This document shows, in pieces, positions 15,115 through 21,111 of a stretch of 64,000 nt of DNA. The notes under the pieces are model-generated. The model was not told where the DNA came from, made no database searches, and was given only the letters and a program-made list of their open reading frames with translations. The translations under genes and the position numbers were made by a program. Position 1 is the stretch's first letter; each line of letters starts with the position of its first letter. The stretch is from assembly GCF_053078305.1 (NCBI RefSeq), contig NZ_CP166879.1. The stretch is one strand, 5' to 3'.

Positions 15115-15284
15115 TGGAGGAATTATGAAACACTGTCGGGAATCGTCTGAATGGCGGGCACATTTGCGAGCACGCATCCAGTAATAACACAGGAAACTAT
15201 TTTATCTACGCGTTAGCGATAGACTGCATGCATGGCGAAAGGAGGTAAGCCGACGATTTCAGCGGGATGCTGAAACGGGAAAGC

Positions 15285-15425
15285 CCCTCCCGAGGAAGGG
15301 GTCTTAAATAAGGAAAGGGTCATGATGAAGATACTCATCATCGTGGTGCTCTTAGTGATTAGCTACCCAGCATACTAAGACTACCAGGGCGGGGGAAACC
15401 CCGCTCTACCCTCACTCCTGAAAGT
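15285..15425 (-). ncRNA. Sib antisense sRNA (antitoxin) copy 1, boundaries approximate
   Basis: Inferred from Ibs/Sib architecture: antisense RNA covering ibs ORF and 5' UTR; boundaries not determinable by eye. Confidence 0.4.
15322..15378 (+). CDS. ibsB: Ibs-family type I toxin peptide (MMKILIIVVLLVISYPAY), IbsB-like
   Basis: ATGATGAAG...TACTAA with AGGAAAGGG RBS; not in ORF track (under 60 aa). Confidence 0.7.
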   Translation: MMKILIIVVLLVISYPAY

Positions 15426-15612
15426 ATGCCTTCACGTTCAGAATGTCAATCCGCAGGCTTTGCAGTCTGCGATCCTGCCAGCAAATATTCTTTGCGAGAC
15501 GTTACGCAATAATAACACAGGAAACTATTTTATCTACGCGTTAGCGATAGACTGAATTCAGGGCGAAAGGAGGTAAGCCGACGATTTCAGCGGGACGCTG
15601 AAACGGGAAAGC

Positions 15613-15753
15613 CCCTCCCGAGGAAGGGGCCTTAAATAAGGAAAGGGTCATGATGAAGTGGATCATCATCGTGGTGCGCTTAGTCATAAGCTTCCCGGCT
15701 TACTAAGACTACCAGGGCGGGGGAAACCCCGCTCTACCCTCACTCCTGAAAGT
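15613..15753 (-). ncRNA. Sib antisense sRNA copy 2, boundaries approximate
   Basis: As copy 1. Confidence 0.4.
15650..15706 (+). CDS. Ibs-family peptide variant (MMKWIIIVVRLVISFPAY) with Arg inside the hydrophobic core
   Basis: Same repeat position and RBS as copies 1 and 3; charged substitution may impair toxicity. Confidence 0.55.
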   Translation: MMKWIIIVVRLVISFPAY

Positions 15754-15941
15754 ATGCCTTCACGATAAGATTGTCAATCTGCAGGCTTTGCAGTCTGCGA
15801 TCCTGCCAGCAAATATTCTTTGCGAGTCGTTACGCAATAATCATAGAGGGAACTATTTTGTTCACGCGTTAGCGATAGACTGCATTCAGGGCGAAAGGAG
15901 GTAAGCCGACGATTTCAGCGGGACGCTGAAACGGGAAACAC

Positions 15942-16085
15942 TCTCCCGGAGAAGAGGGCTTTTAATAAGGAAAGGGTTATGATGAAGCACGTCATCATAC
16001 TGGTGATACTCTTGGTGATTAGCTTCCAGGCTTACTAAGAACACCAGGGGGAGGGGGAAACCTCTCCCTAACCCTCACTCCTGAA
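15942..16085 (-). ncRNA. Sib antisense sRNA copy 3, boundaries approximate
   Basis: As copy 1. Confidence 0.4.
15979..16038 (+). CDS. ibsA: Ibs-family type I toxin peptide (MMKHVIILVILLVISFQAY), IbsA-like
   Basis: One substitution vs recalled IbsA MMKHVIILVILLVISFPAY. Confidence 0.7.
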   Translation: MMKHVIILVILLVISFQAY

Positions 16086-16258
16086 ATTATGTCACTCCGC
16101 CCTTAGTGTCAATCGACGGCTCTCCGTTCTTGCGAGGCGAATAGCAAAATTTTCTGCGCCGCCGGGCCTAATTCTGAAAGTTTCTTCGTTTGCTCTTATT
16201 TCATTATTGCAATCGGTATGATACCGGACCTCAATAATTCTCTAAGAAAGGATTTCTT

Positions 16259-16918
16259 ATGAGCGAACAAATCACGTTTGCCACCAGCGATTTTGCCAGT
16301 AACCCGGAACCACGTTGCCCCTGCATTTTGCTGCTGGATGTTTCTGGTTCGATGAACGGTAGACCCATTAATGAACTTAACGCCGGATTGGTTACCTTTC
16401 GCGATGAGCTGCTTGCCGACCCGCTGGCCTTAAAAAGAGTGGAACTTGGTATTGTGACGTTCGGCCCGGTGCATGTGGAACAACCCTTTACCAGCGCCGC
16501 TAATTTTTTCCCGCCCATCCTGTTTGCCCAGGGCGATACACCAATGGGTGCCGCCATTACCAAAGCCCTGGATATGGTAGAGGAGCGGAAACGTGAGTAT
16601 CGTGCAAATGGTATTTCGTATTATCGCCCGTGGATTTTCCTGATCACCGATGGTGCACCAACCGATGAGTGGCAGGCTGCCGCCAACAAAGTGTTTCAGG
16701 GGGAAGAAGATAAGAAGTTTGCCTTCTTTTCCATCGGTGTTCAGGGGGCGGATATTAAGACTCTGGCACAAATCAGCGTTCGTCAGCCTTTGCCACTGCA
16801 GGGATTACAATTCCGTGAACTGTTTAGCTGGTTATCCAGTTCGCTGCGTTCGGTTTCCCGCTCCACGCCGGGAACGGAAGTTGTGCTGGAAGCGCCAAAA
16901 GGCTGGACGTCAGTTTGA
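16259..16918 (+). CDS. yegL: von Willebrand factor A (vWA) domain protein YegL
   Basis: 219-aa ORF; MIDAS-like DVSGSM motif. Confidence 0.9.
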
Positions 16919-17676
16919 GCTGGCGTCTGGTTTATGCATCCGCTGTTGGAACGTCGCACATTAGCGCTGATTTACCTTGTCAGGATGCCTGCCAGATGCA
17001 GGTTGCCTGGCTAAATGACCAGCAGCCATTACTGGTGATGTTCCTTGCTGATGGCGCAGGCAGTGTCTCGCAGGGTGGCGAAGGCGCGATGCTTGCCATC
17101 AATGAAGCGATGGCTTATGTGTCGCAAAAAGTGCAGCACGGTGAATTTGGACTCAATGATATCCTCGCCACGGATATTGTGCTGACCGTTCGTCAGCGAC
17201 TTTTTGCCGAGGCAGAAGCCAAAGCATTAGCAGTTCGCGATTTTGCCTGCACGTTTCTGGGATTGATTTCATCGGCTAACGGCACCTTGATTATGCAAAT
17301 TGGCGACGGCGGTGTAGTGGTGGATTTTGGTCGTGGTCTGGAACTGCCGCTTACGCCGATGGTGGGTGAATATGCCAATATGACGCATTTCATTAGCGAT
17401 GAAGATGCTGTTTCCAGACTGGAAACTTTCACCAGCACTGAGCGTGCGCATAAAGTTGCAGCATTTACGGATGGTATTCAGCGACTGGCGTTAAATATGC
17501 TGGATAATTCTCCGCATGTGCCTTTCTTTACCCCGTTTTTCAATGGACTGGCGGCAGCAACGCAGGAACAACTCGATTTATTACCTGAATTGTTAAAGCA
17601 GTTTTTGTCGAGCCCGGCGGTAAACGAGCGTACCGATGATGATAAAACGTTGGCACTGGCGCTGTGGTTACCATGA
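16915..17676 (+). CDS. yegK: PP2C-family Ser/Thr phosphatase YegK
   Basis: 253-aa [10 protein letters not shown]...GGEGA / IGDGG motifs; 4-bp overlap with yegL. Confidence 0.9.
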
Positions 17677-19613
17677 AACCCACTTTATATACTGCTACTG
17701 GTGAGTGCATTACGCCAGGCCGTGAACTGGGCAAAGGTGGCGAAGGCGCGGTTTATGATATCAATGAGTTTGTCGATAGCGTCGCCAAGATTTATCACAC
17801 GCCGCCACCCGCCTTAAAACAGGACAAACTTGCCTTTATGGCTGCGACAGCTGACGCGCAGTTGTTGAATTATGTCGCCTGGCCGCAGGCAACGCTTCAC
17901 GGTGGACGAGGCGGAAAAGTTATCGGTTTTATGATGCCAAAAGTTTCTGGTAAAGAACCGATTCATATGATCTATAGCCCGGCACATCGTCGCCAGAGTT
18001 ACCCTCATTGTGCGTGGGATTTTCTACTCTATGTTGCGCGCAATATTGCTTCATCTTTTGCTACGGTTCACGAGCACGGGCACGTCGTGGGTGACGTAAA
18101 CCAGAACAGCTTTATGGTAGGTCGCGACAGCAAAGTGGTGTTGATTGATAGCGACTCCTTTCAGATTAACGCTAATGGCACGTTGCATTTATGCGAAGTT
18201 GGCGTGTCGCATTTTACGCCGCCAGAGCTACAAACCTTGCCATCATTTGTCGGCTTTGAACGCACCGCGAATCACGATAATTTTGGCCTTGCGTTGCTGA
18301 TTTTTCACGTCTTGTTTGGTGGGCGGCATCCTTATTCTGGTGTGCCGCTTATCTCTGATGCGGGTAATGCGCTGGAGACGGATATTGCCCATTTCCGTTA
18401 TGCCTACGCGTCAGATAATCAGCGGCGTGGTTTAAAACCGCCGCCACGATCTATTCCGCTGTCGATGTTACCGGGCGATGTTGAAGCCATGTTTCAGCAG
18501 GCATTCACGGAAAGTGGCGTGGCAACGGGGCGTCCGACGGCTAAAGCGTGGGTAGCGGCACTGGACTCTCTACGCCAACAGTTAAAGAAATGTACCGTTT
18601 CAGCAATGCATGTTTACCCCGCTCATTTGACTGATTGCCCGTGGTGTACGCTGGATAATCAAGGCGTTATCTATTTTATTGATCTCGGCGAAGAGGTCAT
18701 TACCACCAGTGGTGATTTTGTGCTGGCGAAAGTCTGGGCGATGGTGATGGCGTCAGTAGCACCGCCAGCATTGCAATTGCCATTACCCGATCATTTCCAA
18801 CCGACTGGCAGGCCGCTTCCTTTAGGCCTGTTACGGCGCGAATACATCATTCTGATTGAGATCGCACTGTCAGCGTTATCGCTGTTGCTTTGCGGCCTTC
18901 AGGCAGAACCGCGTTATATTATTTTGGTTCCTGTGCTGGCGGCTATCTGGATTATTGGCAGTCTGACAAGCAAAGCTTATAAAGCAGAAATCCAGCAACG
19001 CCGTGAGGCATTTAATCGCGCGAAAATGGACTATGACCATTTAGTCAGCCAGATCCAACAGTTGGGCGGGCTGGAAGGTTTTATCGCCAAACGGACGATG
19101 CTCGAAAAAATGAAGGACGAAATGCTCGGGTTACCGGAAGAAGAAAAACGTGCTCTGGCAGCACTTCACGACACCGCAAGGGAACGGCAGAAGCAGAAGT
19201 TTCTGGAGGGATTTTTTATTGATGTTGCCTCTATTCCCGGCGTTGGCCCTGCGCGTAAAGCGGCGTTACGGTCCTTTGGTATTGAAACAGCAGCGGATGT
19301 TACCCGTCGTGGGGTTAAGCAAGTGAAAGGGTTTGGTGATCATCTGACCCAGGCAGTTATCGACTGGAAAGCAAGTTGCGAACGCCGTTTTGTGTTCAGG
19401 CCGAATGAAGCGGTAACGCCAGCAGACAGACAAGCGGTAATGGCGAAAATGACCGCCAAACGACATCGGCTGGAATCGACGTTGACTGTCGGCGCGACAG
19501 AGTTGCAGCGATTTCGCCTTCATGCTCCAGCACGGACCATGCCGTTGATGGAACCTTTACGTCAGGCGGCAGAAAAACTGGCTCAGGCGCAAGCAGATTT
19601 AAGCCGCTGCTGA
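17664..19613 (+). CDS. yegI: atypical Ser/Thr protein kinase YegI
   Basis: 649-aa ORF; kinase-like N-terminal domain (HGHVVGDVNQNS, IDSDSF), C-terminal TM and coiled-coil region; 13-bp overlap with yegK. Confidence 0.9.
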   Translation: MVTMKPTLYTATGECITPGRELGKGGEGAVYDINEFVDSVAKIYHTPPPALKQDKLAFMAATADAQLLNYVAWPQATLHGGRGGKVIGFMMPKVSGKEPIHMIYSPAHRRQSYPHCAWDFLLYVARNIASSFATVHEHGHVVGDVNQNSFMVGRDSKVVLIDSDSFQINANGTLHLCEVGVSHFTPPELQTLPSFVGFERTANHDNFGLALLIFHVLFGGRHPYSGVPLISDAGNALETDIAHFRYAYASDNQRRGLKPPPRSIPLSMLPGDVEAMFQQAFTESGVATGRPTAKAWVAALDSLRQQLKKCTVSAMHVYPAHLTDCPWCTLDNQGVIYFIDLGEEVITTSGDFVLAKVWAMVMASVAPPALQLPLPDHFQPTGRPLPLGLLRREYIILIEIALSALSLLLCGLQAEPRYIILVPVLAAIWIIGSLTSKAYKAEIQQRREAFNRAKMDYDHLVSQIQQLGGLEGFIAKRTMLEKMKDEMLGLPEEEKRALAALHDTARERQKQKFLEGFFIDVASIPGVGPARKAALRSFGIETAADVTRRGVKQVKGFGDHLTQAVIDWKASCERRFVFRPNEAVTPADRQAVMAKMTAKRHRLESTLTVGATELQRFRLHAPARTMPLMEPLRQAAEKLAQAQADLSRC

Positions 19614-19625
19614 GCCATTTTTCAA

Positions 19626-20978
19626 TTAACGAAACACCACTTCCGCCCAGCGTGCCAGCCCGGCGGTGACGGAGCCAAAGTCATCGCCGCCTGCAATCGG
19701 AATGCCCGGCAACTGTTCTGCCAGCGCTTTTTTAATCAGCGGCGAACGGGCGCTACCGCCGGTCAGGTAGATGACATCCGGTTTTTCCTGGGCGTTATCC
19801 AGGGCCAGTTGCACCTGTTCCAGAATCCGCGCCAGTGGCTGGCTGAGGGCGCTTTCCAGCCCTTGCTGGCTAATCAGCGTAGCCAGTTCATCGCTGATAA
19901 ACGGCAGTGAGGCGCGGATTTCCGCTACGCTTGAAAGAGCAATTTTGCACTCTTCTGCGCTACGCACCAGGCGATAGCTTAAACGCTGACGCCAGACTTT
20001 CTGTAGCAGGGCCACTTTTTCCGGTTCGCGGGCATCGCGTACCAGATCGTTAAGCAGACGACCGTTGGCACTACTGTAGAAATCACTCTGCGCAGGAACG
20101 TCGTTGATGGCAACCGCATTCCACCACGGCAGAATCGGCAGGGCGATGCCTTTTTCGGTTTCGCCGCCCATGCCCAGTAACGGCATCAGGTTTTTAAACG
20201 CCAGCGCGATATCCAGATCGTTACCGCCAATACGGCAACCACTGTGACCCAGCAGGCTGGCTTCACGATCGAGACGCGAACGCCACTGCGGCCCCATCAG
20301 CAGCAATGAACAGTCAGTCGTACCACCGCCGATATCCACCACCAGCACCCGTTTTTCTTCCTGCAAAGTCGCTTCGTAATCCAGCCCTGCCGCTACCGGC
20401 TCGTACTGGAATACCACATCCTTAAACCCGGCACGCTTCGCCGCGCGTTCCAGAATCCCTTGCGCCTGGGCGTTTGCTTCATCGCCGCCCAGCCCCTGGA
20501 AGTTGATCGGGCGACCAATCACCGCCTGAGTAATCGCTTCTGGCAGCTGCGCCTGCGCCTGCTGGCGAATGTGCAACATCATTGCGCAGACCAGATCCTC
20601 AAACAGCGCTACCTGCTGCGGTTTTAAGCCGCTGGCACCGAGGAACGATTTTGGTGATTTCACAAACCACACTTCTTCTGGATCATCAATGTACTGTGCC
20701 AGTGAGGAAAGACCGAACTGCACGCTTTTCGCCGTAACATCGATATCTTCTTCGCGGTTATAACGAATCGCCCGACGCAACAGCGCCTGCGTTTCATCGT
20801 CGTCTGCCGGAACATCATGATGGCGGTACAGCCATTCGCTTACCGCTTCACGCGTTGGCGCGCAAAGCATTGAAGGCAGCAGCGTGCTGTCGTTTTCCAT
20901 TTTTAGCAAGTGCGGTTTACCGTCACGCATGACCGCCACTGAACAGTTTGCTGTACCGTAATCAAAACCAATAAACAC
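19626..20978 (-). CDS. yegD: Hsp70-like actin-fold ATPase YegD (450 aa from GTG)
   Basis: ORF-track frame 19626..21041; ...FIGFDYGTANCSVAVM... and DIGGGTTD motifs. Confidence 0.9.
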   Translation of the reverse strand: MFIGFDYGTANCSVAVMRDGKPHLLKMENDSTLLPSMLCAPTREAVSEWLYRHHDVPADDDETQALLRRAIRYNREEDIDVTAKSVQFGLSSLAQYIDDPEEVWFVKSPKSFLGASGLKPQQVALFEDLVCAMMLHIRQQAQAQLPEAITQAVIGRPINFQGLGGDEANAQAQGILERAAKRAGFKDVVFQYEPVAAGLDYEATLQEEKRVLVVDIGGGTTDCSLLLMGPQWRSRLDREASLLGHSGCRIGGNDLDIALAFKNLMPLLGMGGETEKGIALPILPWWNAVAINDVPAQSDFYSSANGRLLNDLVRDAREPEKVALLQKVWRQRLSYRLVRSAEECKIALSSVAEIRASLPFISDELATLISQQGLESALSQPLARILEQVQLALDNAQEKPDVIYLTGGSARSPLIKKALAEQLPGIPIAGGDDFGSVTAGLARWAEVVFR

Positions 20979-21049
20979 GAAATAATCCCCATGCCGGTGA
21001 AGAAGGGGCGTGACTTTAGCGAAATGTTGCCGTCGCGACAACCGGAATA

Positions 21050-21063
21050 TGAAAGCAAAGCGC
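21050..21063 (+). promoter_or_regulatory. Ada box (AAAGCGCA with upstream A-tract) in alkA promoter
   Basis: GAAAGCAAAGCGCA about 50 bp upstream of alkA ATG. Confidence 0.5.
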
Positions 21064-21111
21064 AGCGTCTGAATAACGTTTATGCTGAAAGCGGATAAAC
21101 AAGGAGATGCG

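Follow-up and report, generated by a model that had tools for sequence, protein, structure and literature searches.

The yegL-pphC-yegI operon, at positions 16259-19613 of the 64,000-nucleotide stretch of DNA analysed here (contig NZ_CP166879.1, called the window below), is a cassette of the TerY-phosphorylation (TerY-P) class. It encodes a vWA protein, a PP2C-type phosphatase and a Ser/Thr kinase; by sequence comparison, all three have homologues in the ter cluster, in its trio of vWA protein, PP2C and kinase with zinc ribbon, and they stand in the same gene order. The cassette is self-contained and horizontally acquired, and is mobile across bacteria and some archaea. It most likely defends against phages or other incoming DNA, a reading to which we give about an even chance.

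The region around the operon (16100-21100) is Escherichia DNA, found at 95-98% identity in 5423 of 5426 complete E. coli genomes (best 98.2%), and the triad locus itself is present at a coverage of at least 80% in 5400 of them. Its three genes are:

16259-16918, plus strand: yegL, 219 amino acids (aa), a TerY-like vWA protein (Pfam VWA, 3.9e-9).
16915-17676, plus strand: pphC (yegK), 253 aa with a TTG start, a PP2C-type Ser/Thr phosphatase (Pfam PP2C_2, 2.2e-47).
17673-19613, plus strand: yegI, 646 aa from the ATG at 17673, an atypical membrane Ser/Thr kinase.

The open reading frames (ORFs) sit where a first-pass annotation, made from the letters of the window alone, had put them, and they overlap as it said, though not in every detail. 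The yegL stop and the yegK start do share 4 bp (TTGA). The 13-bp overlap that it gave for yegK and yegI is obtained only with an alternative yegI start, GTG 17664 (giving a protein of 649 aa); from ATG 17673, which is the yegI start in RefSeq for strains with the same arrangement and is likewise used in the YegI paper (bioRxiv 10.1101/819920), it comes to 4 bp (ATGA). The yegK and yegI frames overlap whichever start applies. The assignment of the three products to a vWA protein with a metal ion-dependent adhesion site (MIDAS), a PP2C phosphatase and a membrane-associated Ser/Thr kinase is borne out by the two Pfam matches and, for YegI, by its published kinase activity and topology.

That pphC and yegI overlap in the window is due to the absence of yegJ, which separates the two genes in K-12; the yegJ-bearing arrangement is found in 1934 of the 5426 complete E. 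coli genomes. Where present, yegJ is oppositely oriented and splits the operon (L002 3078-3802, a K-12-like strain), and in some genomes it is itself interrupted by IS1.

The reference used for comparison was the ter cluster of a Klebsiella plasmid (L008), with the gene order TerY1, TerX, TerY2, TerY3, PP2C, kinase. In BLASTP searches YegL matches TerY1 at 31% identity over 181 aa (E 2e-26) and TerY3 at E 6e-20. A multiple alignment that took in TerY1-3 and 15 YegL orthologues shows what the two groups have in common: the MIDAS, an RPxxFLxTDGxPTD motif, and, near the C-terminus, F-x-W-[LV]-S-x-S with a Ser-rich stretch after it. The MIDAS of YegL is complete (D27-x-S29-x-S31, T94, D131), and its Ser-rich tail (aa 189-205) is conserved. 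The generic Pfam VWA model gives YegL a mere 37 bits; when YegL was compared by tblastn with 72,556 plasmids, ter-cluster TerY genes made up the overwhelming majority of the non-orthologous matches and also ranked best among them. The first-pass annotation had proposed a resemblance to TerY-P modules, and had named as a ground for giving it up a lack of homology between YegL and TerY-type proteins beyond the generic vWA fold. The match to TerY1 and the shared C-terminal motif are homology beyond that fold, and the resemblance extends to the partners, since the PP2C and the kinase with its zinc ribbon also align with their ter counterparts.

Of the three proteins YegL is conserved best, with 57-85% identity across phyla vs. 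34-62% for the kinase and 31-67% for the phosphatase. This range holds from E. coli to Paenibacillus and Methanoregula (L012-L090), where the kinase and phosphatase of the same loci fall to 31-40%, an unusually steep difference in constraint inside one operon. Such strong conservation of YegL beside faster-evolving kinase and phosphatase suggests that it makes contact with something universal.

PphC aligns with the ter-cluster PP2C at 26% identity over 152 aa (E 2e-5), an alignment that covers the C-terminal half of the 577-residue ter protein. Biochemically, it has been shown to act as a PP2C-like phosphatase and to dephosphorylate YegI (bioRxiv 10.1101/303594). YegI is an Mn2+-preferring Ser/Thr kinase of the inner membrane, in which VGDxxQxS and DSD replace the canonical loops; it makes two membrane passes, with both termini cytoplasmic, and autophosphorylates with second-order kinetics on the activation-loop serines S153, S160, and S162 (bioRxiv 10.1101/819920), probably in trans. 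TerY is mentioned in neither of these papers (bioRxiv 10.1101/303594, 10.1101/819920). The parts of YegI can be placed in the window as follows:

17673-18572, plus strand: kinase domain, aa 1 to ~300, from invariant columns in a 30-sequence alignment and from hhalign to ter-cluster kinases.
18591-18647, plus strand: zinc-ribbon-like motif, C307-x5-H313-x8-C322-P-W-C325, right after the kinase domain.
18843-18965, plus strand: transmembrane hairpin, aa 391-409 and 415-431 with a 5-residue outer loop, from hydropathy peaks and the published two-pass topology.
18978-19610, plus strand: cytoplasmic C-terminal module, aa 436-646, an antiparallel coiled coil tipped with a small helical domain.
19206-19418, plus strand: tandem helix-hairpin-helix ((HhH)2) domain, aa ~512-582, with the motifs IPGVGPARK and VKGFGDH.

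Pfam has no kinase match for YegI, giving HHH_5 alone (0.0025, residues 518-553), and searches by sequence against the PDB found no close solved relative. The kinase motifs can nevertheless be read off the alignment: a G-loop GKGGEG, K39, a catalytic loop VGDVNQNS (D141), and DSD in place of DFG (D159-S160-D161). The four zinc-ribbon positions (C307, H313, C322, C325) are invariant among the 30 aligned YegI relatives, and the motif that they form lines up with the zinc ribbon of the ter kinases, C..C...CP[FY]C. Compared pairwise, YegI and the ter kinase match weakly (E 3e-4); when a profile of the 30 relatives was compared with one of 15 ter kinases, hhalign gave a probability of 98.8% (E 6.4e-17) over 337 columns, corresponding to YegI residues 1-344. 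Both families carry the same names at NCBI and JGI, either helix-hairpin-helix domain-containing protein or kinase. To our knowledge, no eukaryote-like pair of Ser/Thr kinase and PP2C other than YegI and PphC has been characterised in E. coli.

The YegI family is large, with 3220 clusters at 50% identity (E at most 1e-30), mostly of ~645 aa. Some relatives (P0122, P0150, P0172, P0176, P0220, P0228, and P0244) keep the YegI kinase and zinc ribbon (1 to ~385) and continue into other, longer C-termini, for total lengths of 770-1160 residues; these have apparently exchanged their sensor or output module for another. A PADLOC scan of these relatives gave generic kinase matches and weak SMC-like ones only.

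Taken in its broad sense, the TerY-P class is defined by features that are all found here: a TerY-like vWA protein with MIDAS, an adjacent PP2C, a kinase with a zinc ribbon, and the operon order vWA-phosphatase-kinase. The same combination travels widely. Scanned at one genome per species, 100,044 species yielded 359 matches, from which 79 loci were kept (4 in Escherichia, 75 in others). These lie in alpha-, beta-, gamma-, and deltaproteobacteria, Paenibacillus, Clostridiales, Georgenia, Planctomycetota, Acidobacteria, Chlorobiaceae, and the archaeon Methanoregula; the Enterobacteriaceae among them are Escherichia and one Klebsiella species only. The order yegL, yegK, yegI is kept in every one of the 72 non-Escherichia loci with enough upstream DNA. 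The cassette is also carried by 39 non-Escherichia plasmids, including pQBR103 and other Pseudomonas megaplasmids as well as rhizobial, Deinococcus, and cyanobacterial plasmids; from phage genomes it is practically absent.

Among the loci compared there is no universal fourth gene, the neighbours being lineage-specific: a TetR-like gene in Competibacteraceae, a 70-residue protein and a secreted nuclease in a Piscinibacter-like clade, and DUF4236 at a few loci. The triad is interrupted at a single locus, that of Candidatus Contendobacter odensis, where a same-strand gene for a 1149-residue PglX/type IIG-like methyltransferase lies between yegL and yegK (L072 4893-8342). In the Piscinibacter-like clade (L005 5719-6474, L011 5700-6501, L091 6685-7467, also L016, L017, L031, and L061), the gene for the ~70-residue protein precedes the triad on the same strand, a protein that resembles staphylococcal nuclease and has an apparent signal peptide follows it, and BrxR is often nearby; the small protein and the nuclease may be accessory parts of this subfamily's mobile unit. 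DUF4236 occurs near both ter TerY genes and YegL-type triads (L007 6838-8046, L008 1099-2322, L011 1962-3182, L023 5578-6750, and three more loci), a recurrence that hints that TerY-like vWA modules have an accessory partner in common.

Within Escherichia, the ratios of nonsynonymous to synonymous divergence (dN/dS) are 0.04-0.09 for yegL, 0.12-0.23 for yegK, and 0.09-0.14 for yegI, similar to those of neighbouring genes. The triad is thus maintained under purifying selection, and these values rule out pseudogene decay as an account of the locus. In E. coli E69, pphC (L018 2980-3738, compared with 16915-17673 of the window) is much more divergent than the genes on either side of it, with a dS of 0.80 and 81% protein identity vs. 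a dS of 0.24-0.29 and 94-97% identity for yegL and yegI; a divergent gene between close neighbours suggests allelic replacement by recombination at pphC.

In the window the triad is followed by a convergent gene that had been proposed as a possible functional associate:

19626-20978, minus strand: yegD, 450 aa with a GTG start, an Hsp70/actin-fold ATPase (NCBIfam equivalog PRK11678, 7e-244).

By tblastn, yegD adjoins the triad in all 4 of the Escherichia genome loci, as well as in the window, L001, and L002. At the 75 other genome loci there is no YegD homologue beside the triad, nor was one seen in nine annotated non-Escherichia contexts. The adjacency is therefore synteny within one genus and not a conserved association; yegD lies outside the cassette, and on the count of 0 of 75 we reject it as a functional partner. 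Between the convergent yegI and yegD stop codons are 12 bp (19614-19625) that contain no terminator-like hairpin; read-through from either side would be antisense to the other gene.

The company that the cassette keeps elsewhere is frequently that of defence genes. Nine non-Escherichia contexts were labelled with Pfam and their defence genes counted within 9 kb: six of the nine have clear defence genes, two are ambiguous, and one is housekeeping. The six contain:

GmrSD, type I restriction-modification (R-M), and SymE.
BrxR, JetB, an SLFN-type helicase, and ScoMcrA.
AbiH, a KAP NTPase, and a Tn7-like element.
Type I R-M and Mrr.
BrxR and DUF499/DUF1156/SNF2.
Prok-E2/ThiF, a dCTP-deaminase-like gene, and a resolvase.

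Another 13 genome loci were examined with PADLOC, which was given the ORFs of 300 aa or more that lie no further than 5 kb away. Six of these loci gave strong matches, one a moderate match (an OLD/AriA-like ATPase with PDC-S26), and six none. The strong matches are to JetC (1340 bits, with a WYL regulator), Avs2 (2926 bits), type I R-M, a type II methylase, DolB/PDC-M37B, and GajA together with GajB (>700 bits). Altogether ~12-13 of the 22 contexts inspected are defence-rich; with no matched background set, this is a strong hint and not a statistic.

It is these neighbourhoods, together with the anti-T7-like activity of other TerY-P systems, that lead us to favour a defence role: the systems so far tested (Gao et al., 2020; a P. 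aeruginosa variant, Costa et al., 2024) protect against T7-like (Autographiviridae) phages, largely without cell killing. If this is correct, PphC would keep YegI unphosphorylated in the resting cell. A cue inside the cell and close to the membrane would be sensed via the (HhH)2/coiled-coil module and bring YegI molecules together, and the clustered kinases would then autophosphorylate in trans; the most plausible cue is invading nucleic acid or an accompanying protein. Active YegI might act on or through YegL, either by phosphorylation of the Ser-rich tail or by way of a MIDAS that grips a phosphorylated or acidic ligand, and YegL would carry the output to a conserved cellular target. The E. 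coli copy has a fixed chromosomal place and shows next to no expression in the laboratory. A more specific proposal, which we put forward tentatively, is that the family forms a distinct, unlisted anti-phage or anti-plasmid system in which a membrane-anchored kinase detects nucleic acid via its stalked (HhH)2 domain and signals through YegL. If so, nearly every E. coli would hold a cryptic copy, split by yegJ in the K-12-like genomes (~36%).

A number of observations weigh against defence. A search of the literature turned up no phage, plasmid or other phenotype for the YegL-PphC-YegI family, and no substrate is known, so that the function is indeed as poorly defined as the first-pass annotation had it. 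The E. coli locus is core and occupies one fixed site (5400/5426 genomes), which is unusual for a defence system, and its flanks (mdtABCD, yegD, alkA) are no defence island; even away from E. coli, ~7 of the 22 contexts have no defence gene, a count likewise made without a matched background control. E. coli B is a classical permissive host of the T phages. Its operon has the contiguous arrangement (bioRxiv 10.1101/303594), and native-level expression therefore gives no visible block to these phages. The published work on PphC and YegI did not find conditions for robust expression (bioRxiv 10.1101/303594, 10.1101/819920), and in a promoter and terminator scan no consensus promoter stands out upstream of yegL, nor is there anything above chance. 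The (HhH)2 domain, on which recognition of nucleic acid would depend, can serve protein contacts instead of DNA binding, as in NusA AR2.

To these must be added the relation to the TerY-P systems already known to act against phage. On the PADLOC TerY-P models, YegL reaches 12.6 bits (E 0.017) for TerY, YegK has no match, and YegI finds generic kinase models only. In a control scan TerY1-3 and the PP2C of the ter cluster went unmatched too; the models are thus narrow, and failure to match them excludes only the Gao subfamily. The kinase of the Gao systems is described as a fusion to an oligonucleotide/oligosaccharide-binding (OB) fold, where YegI instead has the hairpin, the coiled coil, and (HhH)2 (the Gao side of this comparison being by description), and the YegI C-terminus is also unlike that of the ter-type kinase. 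That this triad and the reported anti-phage TerY-P are identical is accordingly not supported, given the unmatched models and the different kinase C-terminus.

Other functions can be envisaged for the triad. It could be part of the endogenous Ser/Thr signalling of E. coli physiology, for instance in stationary phase or envelope stress, regulating host proteins, possibly together with the chaperone-like YegD. The locus is after all core, syntenic in Escherichia and under purifying selection; yegI expression, although weak, has been reported in stationary phase (bioRxiv 10.1101/819920); yegJ overexpression raises yegD expression in K-12; and where a kinase is paired with a phosphatase, as in PrkC/PrpC, the pair usually serves housekeeping regulation. 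We nevertheless consider this explanation unlikely, if well short of negligible. YegD homologues are missing near the triad outside Escherichia (0 of 75 loci), and the neighbourhoods there are defence islands, not regulons. Among the loci kept, the triad is moreover sparse in Enterobacteriaceae, and it is present in archaea, in Firmicutes and on megaplasmids, a patchy cross-phylum pattern that indicates horizontal transfer and not a lineage-specific regulator. Its presence on many megaplasmids and symbiosis plasmids, and beside Tn7-like and resolvase genes, would also be expected of a selfish or competitive mobile-element function, such as exclusion of rival plasmids or stabilisation of the carrier element; a toxic output would be compatible with the finding, from a genome-wide E. 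coli screen, that overproduction of YegL or YegI leads to more endogenous DNA damage. Such a function is not easily told apart from defence against incoming DNA, with which it overlaps, but a cassette that is chromosomally fixed in Escherichia and Competibacteraceae with lineage-specific synteny, and essentially absent from phage genomes, fits it poorly, and we think it quite unlikely.

Direct homology to the ter-cluster trio raises the further idea of a sensor for metal or xenobiotic stress, comparable to the ter TerY module, in which the MIDAS of YegL would sense metal and switch the kinase and phosphatase. The metal-binding motif is intact, YegI prefers Mn2+, and DUF4236 recurs near both kinds of module. 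The genes that characterise ter clusters are not there, however: TerD, TerC, TerB, TerZ, and ter biosynthetic genes appear in none of the YegL-type neighbourhoods inspected, and those of the TerD family, TerC, TerB, and biosynthesis are absent from the window flanks and from the nine Pfam-annotated contexts alike. A metal-sensing role thus seems to us very unlikely. It also counts against such a role that the ter cluster itself has reportedly been implicated in phage and colicin resistance, in an analysis by Anantharaman from 2012.

The surroundings of the triad in E. coli have some features of their own. Upstream are mdtB and mdtA (minus strand) and three ibs/Sib repeats; downstream, past yegD, are alkA and dgcE. 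The repeats are tandem ibs/Sib type I toxin-antitoxin modules between mdtA and yegL (15200-16112), with a pitch of ~330 bp, and are matched by the Rfam SIB_RNA model at three places:

15307-15449, minus strand: SIB_RNA.
15635-15777, minus strand: SIB_RNA.
15964-16112, minus strand: SIB_RNA.

The window's closest relative (L001) also has three copies at this site, and the K-12-like strain (L002) has two. From the ibs repeats through yegI, the GC content is 0.48-0.52, vs. 0.55-0.60 in mdtAB and yegD; the lower value over this stretch fits an insertion.

The genes were already annotated and the biochemistry of PphC and YegI published. What is new is the homology of all three genes to the ter triad, the recognition of an invariant mobile cassette, its frequent defence-island company, and the distinctive C-terminus of its kinase. 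These place YegL, PphC, and YegI in a TerY-P-class cassette that moves between phyla and tends toward defence islands. Defence-finding tools miss the family because their TerY-P models are narrow and because the E. coli locus is fixed outside any island. If a defence role were confirmed, the combination of membrane hairpin, coiled coil, and (HhH)2 on a kinase would be a sensor design new to defence systems, and TerY vWA proteins would gain a defined role.

Several known systems share parts of this architecture. The ter cluster, which occurs on IncHI2 and Klebsiella plasmids, is like the YegL-type cassette in its order of vWA, PP2C, and kinase, in the shared MIDAS and C-terminal motif, and in the zinc ribbon after the kinase. 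It differs in having three TerY paralogues and TerX, embedded among ter genes, where the YegL type stands alone; its PP2C has 577 aa vs. 253 in PphC; and its kinase is a soluble protein of 499 aa without transmembrane hairpin, coiled coil or (HhH)2, all three of which YegI has. With the TerY-P systems of Gao et al. (2020) and Costa et al. (2024) the cassette has in common the three-domain triad and its occurrence in defence islands. The P. aeruginosa variant of the latter authors is probably not of YegI type: two published primers for it were unmatched in metagenome contigs, and there is no P. aeruginosa protein among the best 120 matches to a Pseudomonas YegI homologue. The triads associated with CoCoNuT systems likewise combine a PP2C with a TerY-like vWA protein and with a Ser/Thr kinase that has a zinc ribbon at its C-terminus; these are embedded in larger McrBC/HEPN operons, whereas the YegL-type cassette is without constant partner genes.

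As in PrkC/PrpC and PknB/PstP, a membrane kinase and a PP2C are co-encoded, and the phosphatase dephosphorylates the autophosphorylated kinase. Unlike those kinases, YegI has no extracytoplasmic sensor (e.g., PASTA), its catalytic loop is atypical, and DSD replaces DFG; the triad further differs from such pairs in its obligatory vWA partner and in its patchy, mobile distribution. Finally, PD-T4-6, Stk2, and the kinase domain of Mokosh MkoA are weakly similar in the kinase core (14-19 bits for YegI, at most 31 bits for the family variants). They have no vWA or PP2C partners, and the likeness is confined to the generic kinase fold; PD-T4-6, Stk2, and Mokosh are, all the same, precedents for defence signalling by Ser/Thr kinases.

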